Shown one piece after another: positions 1,064-18,302 of a DNA stretch of 39,679 bases. Origin of the DNA: a virus (taxonomy: Duplodnaviria > Caudoviricetes); the IMG/VR virus record IMGVR_UViG_3300036453_000007, positions 1 to 39,679 of that record, one strand, 5' to 3'. A program made the position numbers and the translations under genes. Under the pieces are notes generated by a model. It did not search any database and was not told the origin of the DNA. It saw only the letters and a program-made list of their open reading frames with translations. Position 1 is the first letter of the stretch; every line of letters starts with the position of its first letter.

Positions 1064-1498
1064 CTAGTCCTCGACCTTGCGCGTGCGGAAGATCAGCCCG
1101 TTGAGGTTGGCCTTCTCGCCCGCTTCAACCCGCCAAGCGTCGATGCGATCGAGCCGCGATTTCTCGGCGAAGTCAGTGATGGGTGCATCCGTGACGTACC
1201 GGTAGCCGCCGTCATATTCGTTCGGGTGTGCACGCGGTGACGTGGCCTCCGATATGAGGTGACCATGAGGCCCGATGTCTGCCTCGAGTCGGGCATACGC
1301 GGTCAACCATGCGACCTGCTCATCATCGAACTCAGGCTCGCGATGCTCCATTGACCATGCGAGGCGGCCGTCGTCGTCGTAGCCGTACTCGACAAGCGTC
1401 GAGGGCTCCCACCCGTCCAGGCGGCGAGGCGCGACCTGAAGCTTGGTCGCGAGCGCTAGTTTTTCGTGGAGCGCGCCGTCGCTCCGAATGCTTTTCCC
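1064..1498 (-). CDS. Tail assembly chaperone, -1 frame extension (lambda gpT equivalent)
   Basis: Open frame GKSIRSDGALHEKLA...LIFRTRKVED overlaps the 3' end of the upstream chaperone and is entered at G GGA AAA. It lies directly before the TMP. Confidence 0.8.
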   Translation of the reverse strand, partial: GKSIRSDGALHEKLALATKLQVAPRRLDGWEPSTLVEYGYDDDGRLAWSMEHREPEFDDEQVAWLTAYARLEADIGPHGHLISEATSPRAHPNEYDGGYRYVTDAPITDFAEKSRLDRIDAWRVEAGEKANLNGLIFRTRKVED

Positions 1499-10890: not shown

Positions 10891-11814
10891 TTAGGCGACT
10901 CGGTCACCTTTGGAAACGTTGCAGCGCAGATGCGCTAGTTGGCAGTTCTCGGGAGTGTGCGCCCCGCCGCGAGCAATTGGCATGATGTGGTCGACGCTCC
11001 GACTGAAAGGGTTTGGATAGAGCAGAGCGGGGTCGACCGGCTCGGCGCAGATTCCGCAGGCCAAGCCATCCCTTGCGATAAGGTCCGAAACGCGCACAGC
11101 GCCATGCGACTGAGTGCCCAGCTTTCGAGCCCGCCGAATGTGCGAGTTATTCCGTCTGCGTTCATCCCATGGCGAATTCGGAAGCCGCCCTTGAGTTCTA
11201 AGGATTCGCTTGTAGTGCATATTGCAAACACCCAGTGCGCGCACGGGCCGCTCGCAGTCCATCTCGGAGCATTTCGAGTCGTCTTTGTCGCGTGCAGTGT
11301 CGCGGTGGATGCGAGCCATCGCCAGCCGGTGCTCGTCGCACCACTTATTACTGTGCAATAGGACCACGCCGCAGTGGTCCCATTTGCAAATATGCGAGCC
11401 TGATCTCCGAAGCTCTTCGCGCTTGGCCTTTTCTGCTCGGGCGTATTCCTCGCGGTGTGATTCTGCAACGCATTTCTGAGAGCAGAATTTAGGGTCCGTA
11501 CCGCGAGAGCTCGTCCGCGCAATAGTGGCACCGCAAATGCAGTGTGTCGGCGCGATGTAGCCCGATTCGATCTTCGCTGCTCGCAGTTGCGCCGCGTAAT
11601 GACGTGAGCATAGTCCCCGCACGCCCCTCTTATTGAGGCAGGACTCCATCCCGCACTGCTCGGAAAGCGGCAGCGCAACCCGCGCAGACCTGCCACTCCT
11701 GTGGGTTTCGCACCACTTCGGATGCCGACCCCTGCCGGACCACATAATGGTCACTTCGCAGCCGGGCATTGTGCATGTAAACTCAGTCATATCAACCCTC
11801 ATCCGGTTGGTCAT
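10891..11814 (-). CDS. Large HNH endonuclease with multiple Cys/His zinc-binding repeats (homing-type)
   Basis: C-terminal RDGLACGIC...SVDHIMPIARGG.H...NCQLAHLRCN; N-terminal repeats of C-x4-C...GLC..HY. Start uncertain. Confidence 0.85.
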   Translation of the reverse strand: MTNRMRVDMTEFTCTMPGCEVTIMWSGRGRHPKWCETHRSGRSARVALPLSEQCGMESCLNKRGVRGLCSRHYAAQLRAAKIESGYIAPTHCICGATIARTSSRGTDPKFCSQKCVAESHREEYARAEKAKREELRRSGSHICKWDHCGVVLLHSNKWCDEHRLAMARIHRDTARDKDDSKCSEMDCERPVRALGVCNMHYKRILRTQGRLPNSPWDERRRNNSHIRRARKLGTQSHGAVRVSDLIARDGLACGICAEPVDPALLYPNPFSRSVDHIMPIARGGAHTPENCQLAHLRCNVSKGDRVA

Positions 11815-11905
11815 GCCCCCGGAGTTAGTAGCTCGCGGGGGTCTTTATTTGGGCGATTTGCGCCCAGGGCAAAACGTCTAGATTATGCAGCCGACTAGTT
11901 CGCCC

Positions 11906-11914
11906 TCTCCGGCG
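11906..11914 (-). other. Candidate cos site (CGCCGGAGA)
   Basis: Lies in the non-coding gap after the small HNH gene and a GGGGGAGGGG run, the usual position of 3' cos ends in HNH-terS phages. It resembles CGCCGG-containing overhangs I recall for Arthrobacter phages (unverified). Confidence 0.45.
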
Positions 11915-12009
11915 GTCATTTGGGAGGATGCGATCAAGGCCCCTCCCCCTATCCGAGGTGCCTCTCGCACGCCCCCTGTGACTGCCTAAGGCGATGTCAT
12001 GCTCAGCAC

Positions 12010-12366
12010 CTACTCGCGCACGTTCCATCCGCCTCGTTGCGATGGTGCGCTTGCTGTGGCTTGTGAGTGACAGGTGTGACACAGACCACGACCACGTTCA
12101 GGATCGTTGCTGTCTAGCCCTTGCTCGAGTAGGTCACGCTTCGAGTCGGGGTGGTGGTCAGCCTCGGTTGCTTGTGCTGCATGACACAACACACAGATAG
12201 GGTCACGCTCGAGCACACCGTTACGGAATGCCCGATGGCCATTGCCTGCATACCCTCGCTGCTTAGCTGTACCCCGTGCCTTGTCTGCTGCTGCTTGATG
12301 CTCGGGGCAGCGCGTGTCCTTGCCGGTGTGCATGGTGGGACAGCCGAAGATGGAGCAGACTCTCAT
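12010..12366 (-). CDS. Small HNH endonuclease (terminase-associated, HK97 gp74-like)
   Basis: RGTAKQRGY...VLERDPICVLC...EADHHP...GLCHTCHS; position upstream of terS. Confidence 0.88.
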   Translation of the reverse strand: MRVCSIFGCPTMHTGKDTRCPEHQAAADKARGTAKQRGYAGNGHRAFRNGVLERDPICVLCHAAQATEADHHPDSKRDLLEQGLDSNDPERGRGLCHTCHSQATASAPSQRGGWNVRE

Positions 12367-12587
12367 CGCCCTGCTGCCTCCATGCTGAATCCAATGCGTG
12401 CAGTGACTGGCTTCTGTGCTTCATGGTCGAACTGCATTGCCCGCTCTGTGTGCGCCTCTGACCCGTTCTTATCCGGTTCGGGTGCAACGTCCTCAGCCAC
12501 ATCATGCCGGTGTCCTGAGCGCCATTCCTTGATGCGTGAGTAGCGCATGGATTGAACGAACGCACCGCATGAGCAGGACTCGCGCAT
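12363..12587 (-). CDS. Hypothetical protein (CxCG motif)
   Basis: 74 aa, ATGA-coupled to the HNH gene. Confidence 0.7.
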   Translation of the reverse strand: MRESCSCGAFVQSMRYSRIKEWRSGHRHDVAEDVAPEPDKNGSEAHTERAMQFDHEAQKPVTARIGFSMEAAGR

Positions 12588-12596
12588 GAGATCCCC

Positions 12597-13931
12597 TTAC
12601 AAGAACGCTTGATCAGACCAGCCCAATTGATCGTGCGTACCAACCAGCAGCGCAAGAATCCCTGAACGTGAGTGCTTCCCGTTCATGTCCCTGAGCCACT
12701 TCGATGAGTCGTTACCTTCGCATGAGGGAGCTTGAAATACTGAGCAGCTACCCATATCCCATGCGGCGTAATGGTGGCGGTGAGCGGTGATCCAGATGCG
12801 TGCAGCGTGTGCTTGTGCATCGCCGCGTACTTGACCGTTAAGCCACTTCTCAAATCCGCTTGCGTCGTTGCCTGGGATCTTGTGCCCGTGATTGAATGCG
12901 ACCGGTACGCCTGCGATGTCGGCGTACACGTTCATTTCGTCGTGCGGGATGGTGAACTTCACATGCTCGAACTCGGGTCGACCACGAAGAATACGTTGCA
13001 GCGACTCAGCAAGGAATGCCGAGCCGGTGTCTTCATCGCCAGTGATCGACTTTGCAGCGCCACCCTGACGACCAAACTGCGTGTGGTTACAGTGCACAGT
13101 CACGAACTGGCCCTTGTCGAACTGGGGGAAGAGCTCGCGTGAGTACGCTTCCCAGATGTCGAGTACGTGGTTCATCTGCGCTCTAAGCCCACCTTGTACG
13201 GTGTGGCTCTGGTTCGCGTAGTTGCCGGCGATTCCCTCGAAAGGATCGCCGTTGTTGACCAGGACAAGCTCGGTGATGTTGCGGCCGGTCTTGCGCTGTC
13301 GGTCGATGTACGCCTGAGTGTTTTCGATGCCGTCAAGCATTCGATCCAGTAGGCCCTTGATACCGCCTGATTCGTGCTTACCTGCCTGCATGTCGGCGAG
13401 GTTGACAACCGCGGCAACTTCAGGGCCAATACCAGATCCGGGGATGCGCTGCGGAAGCTTCCACGCCTGCACACGCCGGCGAGTGGCTTCGGTCTCGGCG
13501 GGTGTTGGTTCGTTGATGTGGCGCCGCGTAAACGATGCCCGATAAGAGAACAAATTCACGACATCGCGCGACCCATCATCGAGCGCCTTGGACTGCTGCC
13601 AAGTCCCCATGCGAACGGTATCGCCAACAATGACGAATGCGTTCGGGTCGAGGTTGAACCGGGCGAATACGTCAGCCCAGTCCGTGATCGGTTCGACGGT
13701 TTGCACGTCTATGAATGTGCCGCCATCAGGGCCAAGCTCAAGACGGCCGGAAAGCTTGCCGACTGCCGGGTCTGCCTTTTCGACGCCAGCAATTTGGCGT
13801 TCAAGTTCCAGGCGGGCACGTTGCGCATTCACGGATGACTTACTCGTGTGCCACTTGAGAGCCAGCGCGCGGCCGGATAGTTCGGCGTTGTTCAGGTCGA
13901 CGAGATAACGCGCATCTTCGAGCAGCGACAT
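12597..13931 (-). CDS. Calcineurin-like metallophosphoesterase-fold protein with N-terminal HTH-like segment
   Basis: Ordered motifs LADMQ, NNGDPFEG, HCNH, FNHGH, TAHRHH match the five MPP metal-binding motifs in degenerate form; RBS GGGAG. Confidence 0.75.
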   Translation of the reverse strand: MSLLEDARYLVDLNNAELSGRALALKWHTSKSSVNAQRARLELERQIAGVEKADPAVGKLSGRLELGPDGGTFIDVQTVEPITDWADVFARFNLDPNAFVIVGDTVRMGTWQQSKALDDGSRDVVNLFSYRASFTRRHINEPTPAETEATRRRVQAWKLPQRIPGSGIGPEVAAVVNLADMQAGKHESGGIKGLLDRMLDGIENTQAYIDRQRKTGRNITELVLVNNGDPFEGIAGNYANQSHTVQGGLRAQMNHVLDIWEAYSRELFPQFDKGQFVTVHCNHTQFGRQGGAAKSITGDEDTGSAFLAESLQRILRGRPEFEHVKFTIPHDEMNVYADIAGVPVAFNHGHKIPGNDASGFEKWLNGQVRGDAQAHAARIWITAHRHHYAAWDMGSCSVFQAPSCEGNDSSKWLRDMNGKHSRSGILALLVGTHDQLGWSDQAFL

Positions 13932-14757
13932 ATAGCTCCCTGCCTTTACTTGCGCGAATGGAGCCTTGTAGCTGAATGGCTGGGGTTTATATCCGTCCCC
14001 ATTTATCCGCAGCGGATGACATAGTGTGCTGCGGCACCAAAAGTTTTACCCCTGAGCAGTGACTCGCTCTCTTTCGAGAACCCGTAAGCCTTGCCTGTCT
14101 CGGTCCTACCTTGGGGCAACAGATAGGGCGTCTTGGGCTGCGGTGTGCTTTGTCGGCTTCACGGAATCGAACCGCATCTCCGGGACGCTTCCCGGTGTCC
14201 TAGACCTTGCATGAATCCCAGTTACCGCGAGTTTCTAGAATCGGGTCTGTCGGTTGCGAAGGCCACACCTGTTGGACGATCAGCCGTTATTGCCCCGTAT
14301 GCGTCTGCGGGACCACCAGCACTTATTTCGGCTCTAGGAGTTGCGCCCGATCGGCCCATGTTGGCCTACACGCTCCGGTTTGATCGTCCGTGCTTTCGCT
14401 CGGGACGTCGGCTTCACCGTTGCCGTGCTCGATTCCTGCCGCCGGTGAGCTCCCGGTGTACGGCCCGTTCCGTGTGGGTTCGGGTGGCAAGTGTTGGGGG
14501 CGGTCAGGGAGTGCATGCCCTGCGTAATCCTCACCGTCCTTTGGTGAGGCCCGCCAGCTCGTTTTACTTGCTCCAACGGCGAGCATCACCGTTTACATGG
14601 GGGAATCAGCAACCCCGGCAAGTTAGATCCCCCGTCAGTCCGTCGACCGCCTGTTTTCATGACTCAGCGCACGGCACCAGAGTGGAGATGGTGGAGATTG
14701 TGCCTGCTGGTCTTCAGTGAGGTGAGCGGGTGTGGCTGAGAGGGGAAGCTTAAATAG
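13932..14757 (-). ncRNA. Putative large structured RNA / late-operon leader
   Basis: No credible ORF over ~830 nt in an otherwise tightly packed genome. Many stems, GAAA tetraloops (14067-14080, 14392-14399), a 9-bp long-range helix (14274-14282/14381-14389) and a tRNA-like domain. Confidence 0.55.
14150..14220 (-). pseudogene. Degenerate tRNA-like element
   Basis: T-arm TGCGG-TTCGATT-CCGTG, D-loop-like GGTCTAGGAC, anticodon-position stem CCGGGA/TCCCGG with a non-canonical loop, mismatched acceptor stem, no CCA. Confidence 0.5.
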
Positions 14758-14791
14758 AAAAAGGGCGCCAACCGTAATGGTGGGCGCCCTT
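14758..14791 (-). terminator. Intrinsic terminator just downstream of the late promoter
   Basis: AAGGGCGCC-CACCATTACGGTT-GGCGCCCTT followed by TTTCTATTT. Confidence 0.85.
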
Positions 14792-14843
14792 CGTGATCTT
14801 GGCTGAAACTTTGCCTCTGTGAGAGTCCTGGCCAGCAAGATCA

Positions 14844-14872
14844 ATCCTAGCGCATTTTATCCCGTGTCACAA
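14844..14872 (-). promoter_or_regulatory. Candidate late promoter (SigA-like)
   Basis: TTGTGA-N17-TAGGAT overlapping the stop codon of the upstream regulator. Confidence 0.5.
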
Positions 14873-15569
14873 CCACGTCTTTCTCCGGCGCGTCGTCCAT
14901 CGCCGGATACCCCAGTCTCGCCGCCAGTCGCAGGAACTCATCGGGCATCCATGACACCTTGCACGCCCCGCATTTCGCCCCGATTGACTTGCCGGTTTCG
15001 CGGTCCAACGTGATCTTGAGCGTTGACGATCGCTTCTCTTCACCATCGACCACACGCAGGACATACCGTTCACCGCATTCCGGGCATGCGTTGGGGATGT
15101 CGCGCGATTTTGGCGGGTTGAAGAAGTCCTCAATCCGGCGCACCCATTCCGCGGCGAGTTGCACCGCTGAGTATTCGCGCCGTTCGAGGTAGACAGGCGG
15201 CACACGGTCAATGTTCGTCGCCTTCACCTCGAGCACGTAGGCGGTCATGTCATCCGTCTGCCCAGCCCACAGCCTCACGTAATGCTCAGCGGTGCCGTAC
15301 GGGGTCGGTGCGTGCGTTCTGGCAGCGAGTACGACGGTTGCCTGTTCCGTGATCTCAGCGAGCAGATCCACGGCCGCAGCATCCATCGGCAGTTTGGGAC
15401 CGCCACCGATAGCACCGCCACCTTCACCGCCGCTGAAGATCGCAGCACGTAGTTGCTCGAGCAGTCCGGGCACCATGCACACCGACTGGCCGGCGTCACG
15501 ATTCACCATGACCGGGTGATCCTGAGTTAGCTCGCTAATTAGGACATGGAATGTCTTCGGTTCGGTCAT
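14847..15569 (-). CDS. Zinc-ribbon protein, putative late-gene regulator
   Basis: 240 aa with CPECG...CGAC...W; last early gene, directly before the promoter/terminator pair. Function inferred from position. Confidence 0.65.
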   Translation of the reverse strand: MTEPKTFHVLISELTQDHPVMVNRDAGQSVCMVPGLLEQLRAAIFSGGEGGGAIGGGPKLPMDAAAVDLLAEITEQATVVLAARTHAPTPYGTAEHYVRLWAGQTDDMTAYVLEVKATNIDRVPPVYLERREYSAVQLAAEWVRRIEDFFNPPKSRDIPNACPECGERYVLRVVDGEEKRSSTLKITLDRETGKSIGAKCGACKVSWMPDEFLRLAARLGYPAMDDAPEKDVVVTRDKMR

Positions 15570-15793
15570 TTCACCACTTCCCCTTCCCCCTGCAACTGGT
15601 ACCGGAATATCTCAGCTCGTCCAACGCGCCTTCCCTGTGAGTACTGCGGCATCTCCCTCGTCACGCAAGCCTTCGCGGTACCGAGGCTGAGATACGGTCC
15701 GAGATCGACTGTGTGATCAATGCCTCCCGGATAGCTCCACGTAATCCGAACCCGAAAAACTTCGGTCGGTATGTTGTGCAGGGTGCGACTCAT
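15566..15793 (-). CDS. Hypothetical protein
   Basis: 75 aa, ATGA overlaps on both sides. Confidence 0.75.
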   Translation of the reverse strand: MSRTLHNIPTEVFRVRITWSYPGGIDHTVDLGPYLSLGTAKACVTREMPQYSQGRRVGRAEIFRYQLQGEGEVVK

Positions 15794-16086
15794 CCTCTGT
15801 CCTCTCTCTGCGCCTCTGTAGCGCTGGTACGGGTTGGTGGTGCTAGTTGTGCTGCGAGGGGCTGAGATGGCGGGGTGGGGGCCAGTCCTGCCCTCTCTGG
15901 CACGAGAGCGCTATAGCTGGGGAACAGATCGGATGCCGCCGAGAGTTGCGCGACATCCTGTGCGTCATCCGCGAAGACATCGAGCTTGTCGAGAACGGCC
16001 TGAGCCTCAGCGATATACGCCCGCAGACGGTCGGCCTCGATCGAAGCCATATTGCGCAGACGGTAAAGCACGTCGATCACGTCCAT
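15790..16086 (-). CDS. Hypothetical protein
   Basis: 98 aa, coupled overlaps, RBS GGAGGG. Confidence 0.7.
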   Translation of the reverse strand: MDVIDVLYRLRNMASIEADRLRAYIAEAQAVLDKLDVFADDAQDVAQLSAASDLFPSYSALVPERAGLAPTPPSQPLAAQLAPPTRTSATEAQREDRG

Positions 16087-16289
16087 CAGTTCCCCTCCCG
16101 CTTCATCTCGTCCCGCCTATCGAGCCATGCCTGCGCCTGAGCCCGGCTGTCTTCCGTCCGCACCCATGAGATGCAATCCGCGAAACGGCCATCCCATTCA
16201 GCTTGCAGCCGGTTGCGTAGGGCGGTATGTGCGACGACGATCGCCCTGGCCTTGCGAGCCTGGCGGGTGGTGCGTATGCGTTTGCTCAT
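16086..16289 (-). CDS. Hypothetical basic protein
   Basis: 67 aa, RBS GAGGA, TGATG overlap. Confidence 0.7.
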   Translation of the reverse strand: MSKRIRTTRQARKARAIVVAHTALRNRLQAEWDGRFADCISWVRTEDSRAQAQAWLDRRDEMKREGN

Positions 16290-16308
16290 GTTGTCCTCAA
16301 ATTCGCAT

Positions 16309-16339
16309 AAAAAATGGCCCCTACCGATTGGTGGGTGCC
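16309..16339 (-). terminator. Intrinsic terminator after ssb
   Basis: GGCACCCACC-AATC-GGTAGGGGCC followed by ATTTTTT. Confidence 0.7.
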
Positions 16340-16364
16340 TAGGTGGTGCGGAAGGTGCGGGCTA

Positions 16365-16739
16365 CTACCAGGGAGTCTCATCCGTGAAGGCAGTCGGCGC
16401 GTTCCAGACATCGCCGCCAGTTGCCGGTGCGGTCGTCGGTGCACTCGGCTGCTGCTGCTCCTCGCCCTTGCCCGTGTCGACTCTGGCCTTGTTCACGTTC
16501 ACGTCGATGGACTGGCGCTCGTTGTTGTCGCGGTCGGTCCACGGCTTGCCCTGCTTGACGGAAAAGAACCCGGACACGTTTACCCGATCGCCTTCGGCAA
16601 GTCCCGGCGACTGGTCGAACCATGCTGTGTACCGGTTCGTGTATTCCTTGTCGCCACTGGTCGACTTCTCGGTGATCTTAACGCAGCGGCCGTCCTGGAA
16701 GATGCGGTCGACAGTGCCCTGAATTTTGATGATTGCCAT
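16365..16739 (-). CDS. ssb: Single-stranded DNA-binding protein
   Basis: OB-fold pattern (LAEGDRVNVSG...WTDRDNNERQSIDV) and acidic tail DETPW. Confidence 0.85.
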   Translation of the reverse strand: MAIIKIQGTVDRIFQDGRCVKITEKSTSGDKEYTNRYTAWFDQSPGLAEGDRVNVSGFFSVKQGKPWTDRDNNERQSIDVNVNKARVDTGKGEEQQQPSAPTTAPATGGDVWNAPTAFTDETPW

Positions 16740-16741
16740 GT

Positions 16742-17032
16742 TTATTTCTCCTTTTTCGTGAGGGCTTGTGCCCTCTGTAATTCCTGATAACCGAGCGACT
16801 TGCTGCCACCCGGCCTGTACGTCTGTTTCGGTTTGCGCGGCTGTTTCGGCTTGCGTGCGTTGACCACGTGAGACTCGGCAACCAGCGCGTAGACATCCGG
16901 CAGCACACCCTCGAACCGGGCCACCTTCGCAAGGTGCTCCCGAACCATCTGCCGGTGACCTTCCCCAGTGAATGACTCGCGGGCGATCGTTGCCGGGTCA
17001 ACCTGGGCGAGGAACATCTCGAAACTGTTCAC
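16742..17032 (-). CDS. Hypothetical protein
   Basis: 96 aa, GTGA overlap with the upstream gene. Confidence 0.7.
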   Translation of the reverse strand: MNSFEMFLAQVDPATIARESFTGEGHRQMVREHLAKVARFEGVLPDVYALVAESHVVNARKPKQPRKPKQTYRPGGSKSLGYQELQRAQALTKKEK

Positions 17033-17472
17033 AACACCCTGCCAACCGTGCCGACATCCACCGGCACACCATCGCCCTGATCCAGTGCGAGCCGATCCGA
17101 TGCCTGCCTGCGCTCGAACTCCCGCAGCGTAAACAGTGCGTCGCGGATGTCAGGGGGGAGCAGGTTGCGACTCGGCCACGACTTATCGATAAGGCCGCGT
17201 GCCTTTGCGGATCTCACGTCGGCTTCGATTGCGTTCAGGTTGGACCGGTTATCGACGGTGACCAACGCGACGACATGCGCCACGGTGAACTGTCGACCAG
17301 CATCCGGGCCGGTGTAGTGATCGATGCACGCCTGTTCAGCCTGCGCATAGGTCACGTCACGATTAGCCAGGACACGAAACCATGCGTCCGTCGTCACCCG
17401 GTCAACCTGCACGAACCGGTCGAGGCCGCTTGCAAACAGCAGCAGCGTTCCGATCTCAGGCTTGGTGATCAT
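17029..17472 (-). CDS. Putative helicase loader/inhibitor (G39P-like)
   Basis: Follows the replication initiator; D.R...DAWFRVL...YAQAEQACIDHY pattern. Confidence 0.6.
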   Translation of the reverse strand: MITKPEIGTLLLFASGLDRFVQVDRVTTDAWFRVLANRDVTYAQAEQACIDHYTGPDAGRQFTVAHVVALVTVDNRSNLNAIEADVRSAKARGLIDKSWPSRNLLPPDIRDALFTLREFERRQASDRLALDQGDGVPVDVGTVGRVL

Positions 17473-18302
17473 TGTTCGATTCCCCTCGGTTGGTCGTGCT
17501 CATGTTGCTGCCGGTACAGGTCCTGAACGAAGTCGAGGTTCTGATCGGTGCGGGTCGGTTTGCGGTCTTGCTGATCAGCGACGGGTAACGCTTCGATCCA
17601 TCGCCCTTGGTTCAGCCACGCCTCAAGTCCGGGCGTGAATTTCTCCGCGGTTGTGGCTGCGTATGCTTCACCGAATCTGATGACGTGTTCGGCAAGCTCT
17701 GCAACCGGGATCTTCTTCGCGGCCGTCTTGAACTTGGCGAGTGCAAGTGCGCGCTTGGTTTGCTTCGGCCATGACTTCCATGCGATGTCAAACAGTTCGA
17801 TTTCACGTTCACGTTCACCGGAGGTGGACAAGTCTTTACTTCCCTCTTCCTTCTTCCCCCTTCCCTCTTCCCCCTTCCCTCGTGCCGGAATCCGCGGTTG
17901 AGTGTCGGATAATCCGCCACTGAGTGTCGGACGGTTCGACTCCCGCGTGTTTCCGGGGGTGTTGGCGTCTTCGGGGCCAGGATTTGACCGACGTGCCTTC
18001 TTTTCGGTGCGCTGGTGCGTTTCCCACGTCGGGATCGCGTAGAACTGTCTGCCCGCGACCTCGTAGAAGTCCACGCCGTAACATTCGGATACTTCCCGAC
18101 GCAGTGTCGGATAATCCGCCGCCGAAATGTCGTTGTCATTCGGGAATGCAAATGACACCAAGCGGCCCGCGTTTGCATCACCAATGCCCCAGTCATCAGC
18201 CCAGTTCCACATGGCGATATAGAACAGTCGGCACCGGAGTGAGGCGCGCGCGGTATCTGGTGAATCCCAGAAGTCAGGCTTGATCGATCTGATTCGGGCC
18301 AT
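17469..18302 (-). CDS. Replication initiator (RepA / lambda O-like)
   Basis: MARIRSIKPDFW...YIAMWNWADDWG...WETHQR N-domain; FDIAWKSWPK...A..KF...WLNQGRW C-domain; internal iterons. Confidence 0.85.
   Translation of the reverse strand: MARIRSIKPDFWDSPDTARASLRCRLFYIAMWNWADDWGIGDANAGRLVSFAFPNDNDISAADYPTLRREVSECYGVDFYEVAGRQFYAIPTWETHQRTEKKARRSNPGPEDANTPGNTRESNRPTLSGGLSDTQPRIPARGKGEEGRGKKEEGSKDLSTSGEREREIELFDIAWKSWPKQTKRALALAKFKTAAKKIPVAELAEHVIRFGEAYAATTAEKFTPGLEAWLNQGRWIEALPVADQQDRKPTRTDQNLDFVQDLYRQQHEHDQPRGIEQ
17899..18120. repeat. Iteron-like repeats, probable replication origin
   Basis: AGTGTCGGATAATCCGCC exact at 17901-17918 and 18103-18120; TGAGTGTCGGA at 17899-17909 and 17921-17931; adjacent pyrimidine tract at 17839-17880. 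Confidence 0.7.

Follow-up and report, generated by a model that had tools for sequence, protein, structure and literature searches.

What lies in the 915 nt (positions 13932-14846) that separate two minus-strand genes in an otherwise compact phage sequence? We call the whole stretch analyzed, 39,679 nt, the window. It is a temperate siphophage genome that is read on the minus strand, where Pfam and PHROG matches give the order integrase, replication genes, a DUF7341+DUF7340 gene, the gap, phrog_284, HNH, terminase, portal, capsid, and tail genes. Two HNH endonuclease genes (10891-12366) separate the first late gene from the terminase genes. The upstream protein is 86-87% identical to Cryobacterium proteins, and the conserved DNA described below is present in a Cryobacterium melibiosiphilum genome; Cryobacterium is therefore the likely host. 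The best sequencing run containing the stretch was an ice metagenome. An earlier, sequence-only reading had seen no credible open reading frame in the gap, and this was borne out. At 58% G+C, the gap holds four open reading frames of at least 60 aa (195 aa on the plus strand and 88, 80, and 69 aa on the minus strand), none with a PHROG or Pfam family match, and the stretch carrying the tandem motif has stops in all six frames at two of seven homologous loci. The gap and its borders contain the following features:

14847-15569, minus strand: DUF7341+DUF7340 gene (phrog_1467), by Pfam and PHROG matches
14844-14872, minus strand: promoter-like site, TTGTGA-17-TAGGAT, inferred
14750-14792, minus strand: terminator-like site, a GC-rich hairpin (z -5.26) and then a T run
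14634-14742, minus strand: domain I, a long irregular stem that relatives conserve, here diverged and carrying a ~55-nt insertion
14557-14622, minus strand: copy A of the conserved unit
14499-14555, minus strand: spacer domain, in this genome a three-way junction (z -2.66) with GGCGG/CCGCC as its closing stem, also aligned among relatives
14427-14491, minus strand: copy B of the conserved unit
14274-14425, minus strand: lineage-specific cargo domain, including a 9-bp helix
14153-14218, minus strand: tRNA-like remnant with a T-loop hairpin, 6/7 acceptor pairs, a shortened D arm, and a 6-nt anticodon loop
14052-14080, minus strand: GAAA-capped hairpin, in which 14052-14073 matches the motif tail of one related locus (L025) at 20 of 22 positions
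13936-13945, minus strand: Shine-Dalgarno-like run for the phrog_284 gene, from the sequence
12597-13931, minus strand: first late gene, PHROG family phrog_284, labelled exonuclease

The sequence-only reading had further described the minus strand as folding almost throughout into one large RNA. Every helix string that it listed is present; the gap as a whole, on the other hand, does not fold better than shuffled sequence (minimum free energy z = -1.00 for the minus strand and -0.59 for the plus strand, 20 shuffles each). The proposed excess of hairpins also failed to appear, as the numbers of perfect Watson-Crick stems of 7, 8, and 9 bp (21, 6, and 2) match the shuffle means (20.4, 5.1, and 1.2). 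Among 21 sliding 120-nt windows on the minus strand, only two had z < -2, both over the terminator. The "perfect 9-bp long-range helix" exists but is no evidence alone, since 68% of shuffles contain at least one 9-bp stem. Helix density here is what 58% G+C yields, and just two structures fold better than shuffles, namely the hairpin at 14750-14792 (z -5.3) and the junction at 14499-14555 (z -2.7). That GGCGG/CCGCC junction, which the earlier reading had also drawn, is real: all seven tandem loci retain its closing stem, while the interior varies freely, being a plain hairpin in some relatives and replaced by a short hairpin in an ice-metagenome contig. The GGGGGATC/GATTCCCCC helix fared less well; its strings are there, but it is specific to the window, competes with P1 and P2 of copy A, and is not retained in relatives.

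Protein-anchored searches, pattern searches, and a covariance model together identified 11 related leaders besides the window, counting duplicates once (L033, L034, L031, L086, L146, L151, L025, L155, L156, L157, and L158). The order common to these relatives is a regulator-like gene, a promoter-like site, a hairpin with a T-rich tail, usually the domain I stem, one or two copies of the motif, and a variable cargo. By RNAfold and inspection, the hairpin with its T-rich tail precedes the motif in 12/12 loci. A TTG-16/18-TAnnnT pattern is present in four of the 12 loci and an extended -10 in two more, giving a promoter-like site by pattern in 6/12; a consensus scanner called no promoter in the window, and a simple scanner likewise missed the terminator-like hairpin. 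The motif lies within about 200 nt of that hairpin, at the head of the late operon, whatever the packaging module, and a terminase gene follows on the same strand in all five genome-derived loci checked, representing three PHROG families. The consensus fold of domain I in eight relatives has 15 pairs, four of them with double changes, and the form given for the window comes from a single-sequence fold only. We conclude that the gap is a modular leader of the late operon in a temperate phage of a Cryobacterium-like host. In L155, L156, and L157, a near-perfect ~50-bp inverted repeat of GGGACA/TGTCCC units just after the terminator-like hairpin replaces the leader start and could be an operator or a packaging signal.

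The same upstream-gene family precedes the leader in seven loci (L023, L024, L025, L034, L146, L151, and L156), and in five loci the nearest upstream gene is a small excisionase-like HTH gene. From its position only, the DUF7341+DUF7340 product is likely a late-gene regulator. The arrangement recalls the lambda pR'-tR' leader, in which a promoter and an early terminator are followed by read-through under the late regulator Q: both have a regulator-like gene, a promoter, an early terminator, non-coding cargo, and late genes. The predicted structure of the phage protein (pLDDT 73, model from 12 sequences) speaks neither for nor against a Q-like fold; it had no Foldseek match in the PDB at E 0.001 and a best VIA Z of 6.7, to four-helix bundles. 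A difference from lambda is that the HTH gene is the nearest one in the five loci mentioned. Fold searches with the protein suggested no function, and neither DUF7341 nor DUF7340 appeared in the literature searched. DUF7341+DUF7340 (phrog_1467) genes directly precede a late promoter-hairpin in many actinophages, and we regard the pair as a candidate uncharacterized late-transcription regulator. The promoter-hairpin layout recurs in more distant phages that have the flanking genes in common (L003, L006, L007, and L077-L085), but these gave no match to the motif.

The conserved core of the leader, present also in related prophages whose hosts are cold-adapted bacteria, is a ~65-nt three-way junction in which the loop of P3 pairs with the 3' tail to form a predicted pseudoknot. 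Its parts in the window, all on the minus strand, are as follows:

Copy A: P1, 14622-14618 with 14571-14567; P2, about 14616-14600; P3, 14592-14589 with 14579-14576
Copy A pseudoknot: loop GCUC 14584-14581 with tail GAGC 14560-14557
Copy B: P1, 14491-14486 with 14440-14435; P2, 14484-14464; P3, 14456-14453 with 14445-14442
Copy B pseudoknot: loop GCUC 14450-14447 with tail GAGC 14430-14427

The pairing of GCTCG with CGAGC (14557-14584) in the sequence-only reading was thus correctly placed; rather than a hairpin stem, it is the loop-tail pseudoknot of copy A. RNAalifold, given the seven copy-B sequences, returned the three-way junction unprompted, with 16 pairs of which five show double changes. 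When the loop-tail helix was included, 97% of the cells in the copy-B alignment were paired, compared to 22-45% with slid partners. A second, diverged copy (A) lies upstream in all seven tandem loci, with P1 altered at two pairs in two of them. In four tandem loci, copy A has GAUC/GAUC where copy B has GCUC/GAGC, indicating that loop and tail pair inside one copy. Two held-out loci switch the loop-tail helix from GCUC/GAGC to GCCC/GGGC.

In the 19 copies, which come from 12 phage loci, pairing is kept in all but one of the 228 core helix cells (227) at a mean column identity of 57%; all homologues are related and come from one host genus, so permutation p-values overstate their independence. 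By helix, the counts are 76/76 for P1 pairs 2-5 and 76/76 for the 4-bp pseudoknot, both in registers anchored on motifs picked by eye, and 75/76 for P3, whose 5' register was set to maximize pairing (4/4 is reached by 20% of shuffles per sequence). The double changes comprise U-A to C-G and G-C to A-U in P1 (two copies each), C-G to A-U (four copies) and U-A to C-G (two copies) in the pseudoknot, where each change may be one single event, and changes at three pairs of P3. Compensatory changes among homologues were thus found in all three helices, and the proposal of a functional, undescribed structured RNA on the minus strand at the head of the late transcript held up. Seven G-U cells among the helix pairs, against two C-A cells at helix edges, favor the minus strand as the RNA. 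An A three bases before the tail strand is invariant (19/19), and exactly one base separates the pseudoknot strand from P3 in every copy. The junction and P2 sequences, in contrast, are freely variable, and P2 is absent from one copy (L158), so it is a shape that is conserved rather than a catalytic or base-pairing seed sequence. The energies of the two copies do not exceed those of shuffles (z -1.55 and -1.04), and the pseudoknot is only 4-6 bp long.

A covariance model (R1) built from the seven copy-B sequences recovered five held-out loci at 32-75 bits. It matched in 8 of 70 genomes of the genus (L159 and L160 discarded as coding sequence), 8 of 151 of the family (the six loci L164-L169 discarded as coding), and 2 of 151 of the order (L203 discarded), with nothing real outside the host genus among those 151 family and 151 order genomes. 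BLAST with the gap and with the L086 leader found no real match among 50,697 GenBank phages. A BLAST search of 401 family genomes had G001 as its only strong match. Pattern scans of viral contigs gave three distinct true loci from nine matches, one from three, and five from 34; a scan of genomes gave one from six, and a scan of metagenomes none from 27. A loose pattern run over the 401 family genomes produced chance-level counts like those of a reversed control. A descriptor based on structure alone picks up both copies, along with 12 further sites in the genome and four on one shuffled strand, and is therefore no evidence by itself. Rfam matched nothing in the window at the gathering score, nor in the gap with its flanks (13700-15100) at E up to 10. 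Scans of related loci found tRNAs only, and neither the T-loop stretch nor the copies submitted (14 of 19) gave a match. One assembly (L158, G059:C1) carries the same prophage stretch three times, ~52 kb apart, through either tandem amplification or an assembly artefact.

What might the units do? We tentatively favor an analysis in which the tandem units are cis-acting, 5'-protective, directional roadblocks to the host 5'-to-3' nuclease RNase J; it may well be wrong, and it draws on the kept shape, the dispensable P2, the pairing within each copy, and the tandem arrangement, which together correspond to the layout of flaviviral xrRNAs, and on the presence of RNase J in the hosts (TIGR00649 family, over cut-off in all five host genomes tested). 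Transcription would start at the promoter-like site, near 14837, and, by analogy with lambda, RNA polymerase would stop at the terminator-like hairpin until the late regulator permits read-through. The resulting long transcript would carry two units ahead of the tRNA-type cargo and the packaging genes. A putative upstream cut would expose a 5' end, and the units would then stall RNase J, leaving stable RNAs of the downstream parts (tRNAs, small RNAs, and the first late genes).

Published accounts, as far as the portions consulted go, describe the flaviviral xrRNA layout as a three-way junction with a loop-to-3' pseudoknot (PMC7603331), report that these elements, which come in tandem, stop bacterial RNase J1 in vitro (PMC5760640), and note that the ring topology has convergent origins without sequence likeness and that a pseudoknot alone is insufficient for exoribonuclease resistance (PMC12397905). 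The phage units resemble class 1 xrRNAs (ZIKV xrRNA1 and WNV xrRNA2) in size (~65-70 nt), three-way junction, pairing of the P3 loop with the 3' tail, and tandem occurrence (PMC7603331 and PMC5760640, in the same portions); the L3-to-3'-tail pseudoknot (PK2) within a three-way junction is present. They differ in that PK1, which in the class 1 descriptions consulted joins the 5' end to J3/1 (G3-C44), has no counterpart: the upstream 4 nt are A/C-rich with no G in 19/19 copies, and J3/1 is 0-3 nt long with no common complement. Also absent is the U.A-U or C.G-C triple that those descriptions form from the base before P1 and the first P3 pair; that pair is C-G in 13 of the 19 copies, and the base before P1 varies. 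Other differences are the long J2/3 and the setting in a DNA phage of Actinobacteria. The likeness to class 3 xrRNAs (ST9a and PLRV) is one of outline only, namely P1, a bulge on the 5' side, and a hairpin with its loop paired to the 3' tail; the L158 copy lacking P2 has exactly this outline. The phage pseudoknot is shorter, the L2B T-loop that docks the J1/2 bulge in the part of PMC12397905 consulted is absent, and at the position of the AGY motif the phage units have A-N-C in 19/19 copies (the C was part of the anchor) and AGC in 6/19. If the phage units are roadblocks, they would be a separate solution from both classes, just as those two classes are separate from one another, because PK1, the triple, and the L2B T-loop are all lacking. 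The stronger claim, that a bacterial virus here provides its first exoribonuclease-resistant RNAs, converged on the flaviviral layout, duplicated in tandem like their flaviviral counterparts, and stalling RNase J so that a DNA phage can cut stable subgenomic RNAs (tRNA precursors, small RNAs, and late mRNA) from its late transcript, we put forward as a doubtful possibility of this analysis.

An explanation that we consider unlikely is that the late leader releases the units as stable small RNAs, or as decoys for proteins, that act in trans, like STnc100/PasD, perhaps with intermolecular loop-tail pairing. STnc100 (RF02076) and PasD are likewise small structured RNAs in the late region after a regulator gene, near tRNAs and variable in copy number, and they adjoin antiterminator Q genes in prophages (PMC13192938, in the sections consulted); the copy number of the phage units (one or two), their freely exchanged cargo, and the RNA-library contigs on the module also agree with a role in trans. 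STnc100 and PasD are, on the other hand, enterobacterial Hfq-type base-pairing regulators from another host phylum without sequence or model similarity to the phage units, which show no Rfam similarity to RF02076. Neither copy is followed by a terminator-like hairpin with a U run, and the units contain no long conserved single-stranded seed. Self-complementary loops, a sign of kissing dimers in GOLLD and OLE according to the part of PMC12286853 consulted, occur in only 11 of the 19 copies by inspection (AGCU or GAUC). Were the units instead nascent-RNA signals of the put type, keeping RNA polymerase processive along the lengthy late operon, their constant place at its head, within about 200 nt of the terminator-like hairpin whatever the packaging module, would be accounted for. 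We judge this distinctly unlikely; the units are downstream of the first terminator-like hairpin in 12/12 loci and so cannot cause read-through of it. The put sites of HK022 are two hairpins without a pseudoknot, unlike the phage units, and lie between the promoter and the terminators that are overridden.

The remaining explanations are less probable again. Small self-cleaving ribozymes that cut tRNAs or other cargo out of the late transcript, as phage theta ribozymes are reported to do, would suit a compact pseudoknot with an invariant A (19/19) and the tRNAs found downstream in 4 of 11 relatives. We consider self-cleavage very unlikely. Most loci have units without any tRNA, copies A and B share no conserved junction strands, and the 14 of 19 copies submitted to Rfam matched no ribozyme at E up to 10. 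HDV-like ribozymes have a nested double pseudoknot and a catalytic C, and a nested double pseudoknot of this type cannot be drawn for the units. Hand-drawn HDV-like and twister-type folds were discarded. That the whole 915 nt form one large ornate RNA, as the sequence-only reading had proposed on the model of GOLLD and ROOL, is now highly unlikely and largely refuted. The length of the gap and its prophage position near tRNA slots do fit GOLLD, as far as the consulted part of PMC12286853 describes it, and long-range helices can be drawn. Only 14425-14750, however, is homologous as a block, the 3' half is swapped between phages, whereas the same part of that source describes the GOLLD 3' region as universally conserved, and stems are as frequent as in shuffles. 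The GOLLD and ROOL covariance models found no match, and in place of a large conserved architecture there is a small repeated fold, ten times smaller, that is single in five loci and tandem in seven (the window included). It is extremely improbable that the RNA has no function and that the conservation reflects spacer DNA inherited from a common ancestor or a signal at the level of the DNA. The sequences are few and related and carry no energy signal, but near-complete pairing at 57% column identity speaks against this, and imperfect, G-U-containing, pseudoknotted pairing fits a minus-strand RNA rather than a DNA palindrome.

In one ice metatranscriptome, the only three contigs on positions 11000-17500 all fell within 14294-14500, and one of them covers copy B over 123 nt with three differences; three DNA runs, by comparison, cover 26-30 of the 30 bins of the same region. 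Because this run was chosen through the stretch itself and consists of contigs without ends or strand, from relatives and from a single study, we take it as a weak hint that RNA of the motif module accumulates in relatives.

Structured RNAs in phage late leaders are already known; what is new here is a fold family with comparative support. Judged from the alignments, it is a pseudoknotted RNA fold family with covariation support that is absent from Rfam 15. Our searches of the literature on xrRNAs in phages with RNase J1, structured phage RNAs, mycobacteriophage leaders, and Cryobacterium prophages turned up nothing on the motif, and there was no motif or host match in four supplementary files of PMC10690425, a study with ten thousand candidate viral RNAs; the alignment archives of that paper may list the motif. 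If the units block RNase J, the xrRNA strategy would extend from eukaryotic RNA viruses to DNA phages. Such a finding would show whether viruses of bacteria use such roadblocks and would provide a compact 5' stabilizer for actinobacterial expression. If they are not roadblocks, they are still a new conserved late-leader module with a fold defined by natural variants, and the unit is small and its function cheap to test.

Downstream of the motif, only short pieces of the window's 3' half (13932-14425) are shared with relatives, and the cargo differs in each lineage, consisting of tRNAs, other hairpin modules, or small open reading frames. The leader is therefore a mosaic rather than a single molecule that selection acts on as a whole. 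In one 581-nt contig of an RNA library, 14364-14425 recurs (9 differences in 62) between unlike flanks, and the cargo domain may thus move independently as a module. The inner hairpin of this domain (14292-14322) occurs in the window and two relatives, with CCCG/CGGG in L031 and GCCG/CGGC in L151; the remainder of the domain was not found in the 70 genus genomes, and none of six matches in viral contigs was real. The sequence-only reading had also pointed to a tRNA-like domain. The T-loop hairpin and six of seven acceptor pairs are there by eye, but ARAGORN calls no tRNA at 14153-14218, and the Rfam tRNA model gives none at E up to 10; the stretch appears only at the ARAGORN 70% threshold, among seven low-grade calls. 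It is likely a decayed tRNA gene. Four of 11 related loci have an Rfam-grade tRNA in this slot, and the cargo of L155 (1692-1768), L034, and L031 contains tRNAs with abnormal anticodon loops or low scores; tRNA genes in the slot seem to decay repeatedly.

Two smaller observations concern the cargo. A second conserved non-coding module (ACAACTGAACACGCGC...CACGACGGTAGATATCGGG), for which Rfam gave no match at the gathering score, stands directly before a tRNA in three loci:

L033, 1575-1620: ACAACTGAACACGCGC...CACGACGGTAGATATCGGG module
L146, about 1430-1470, minus strand: the same module
L158, about 1430-1475, minus strand: the same module

A hairpin with the loop CAGACGCATA/CAGGCGCATA and a compensated stem recurs in three otherwise unlike cargo regions (L031, 1600-1630; L151, 1770-1830; and the window, 14292-14322).
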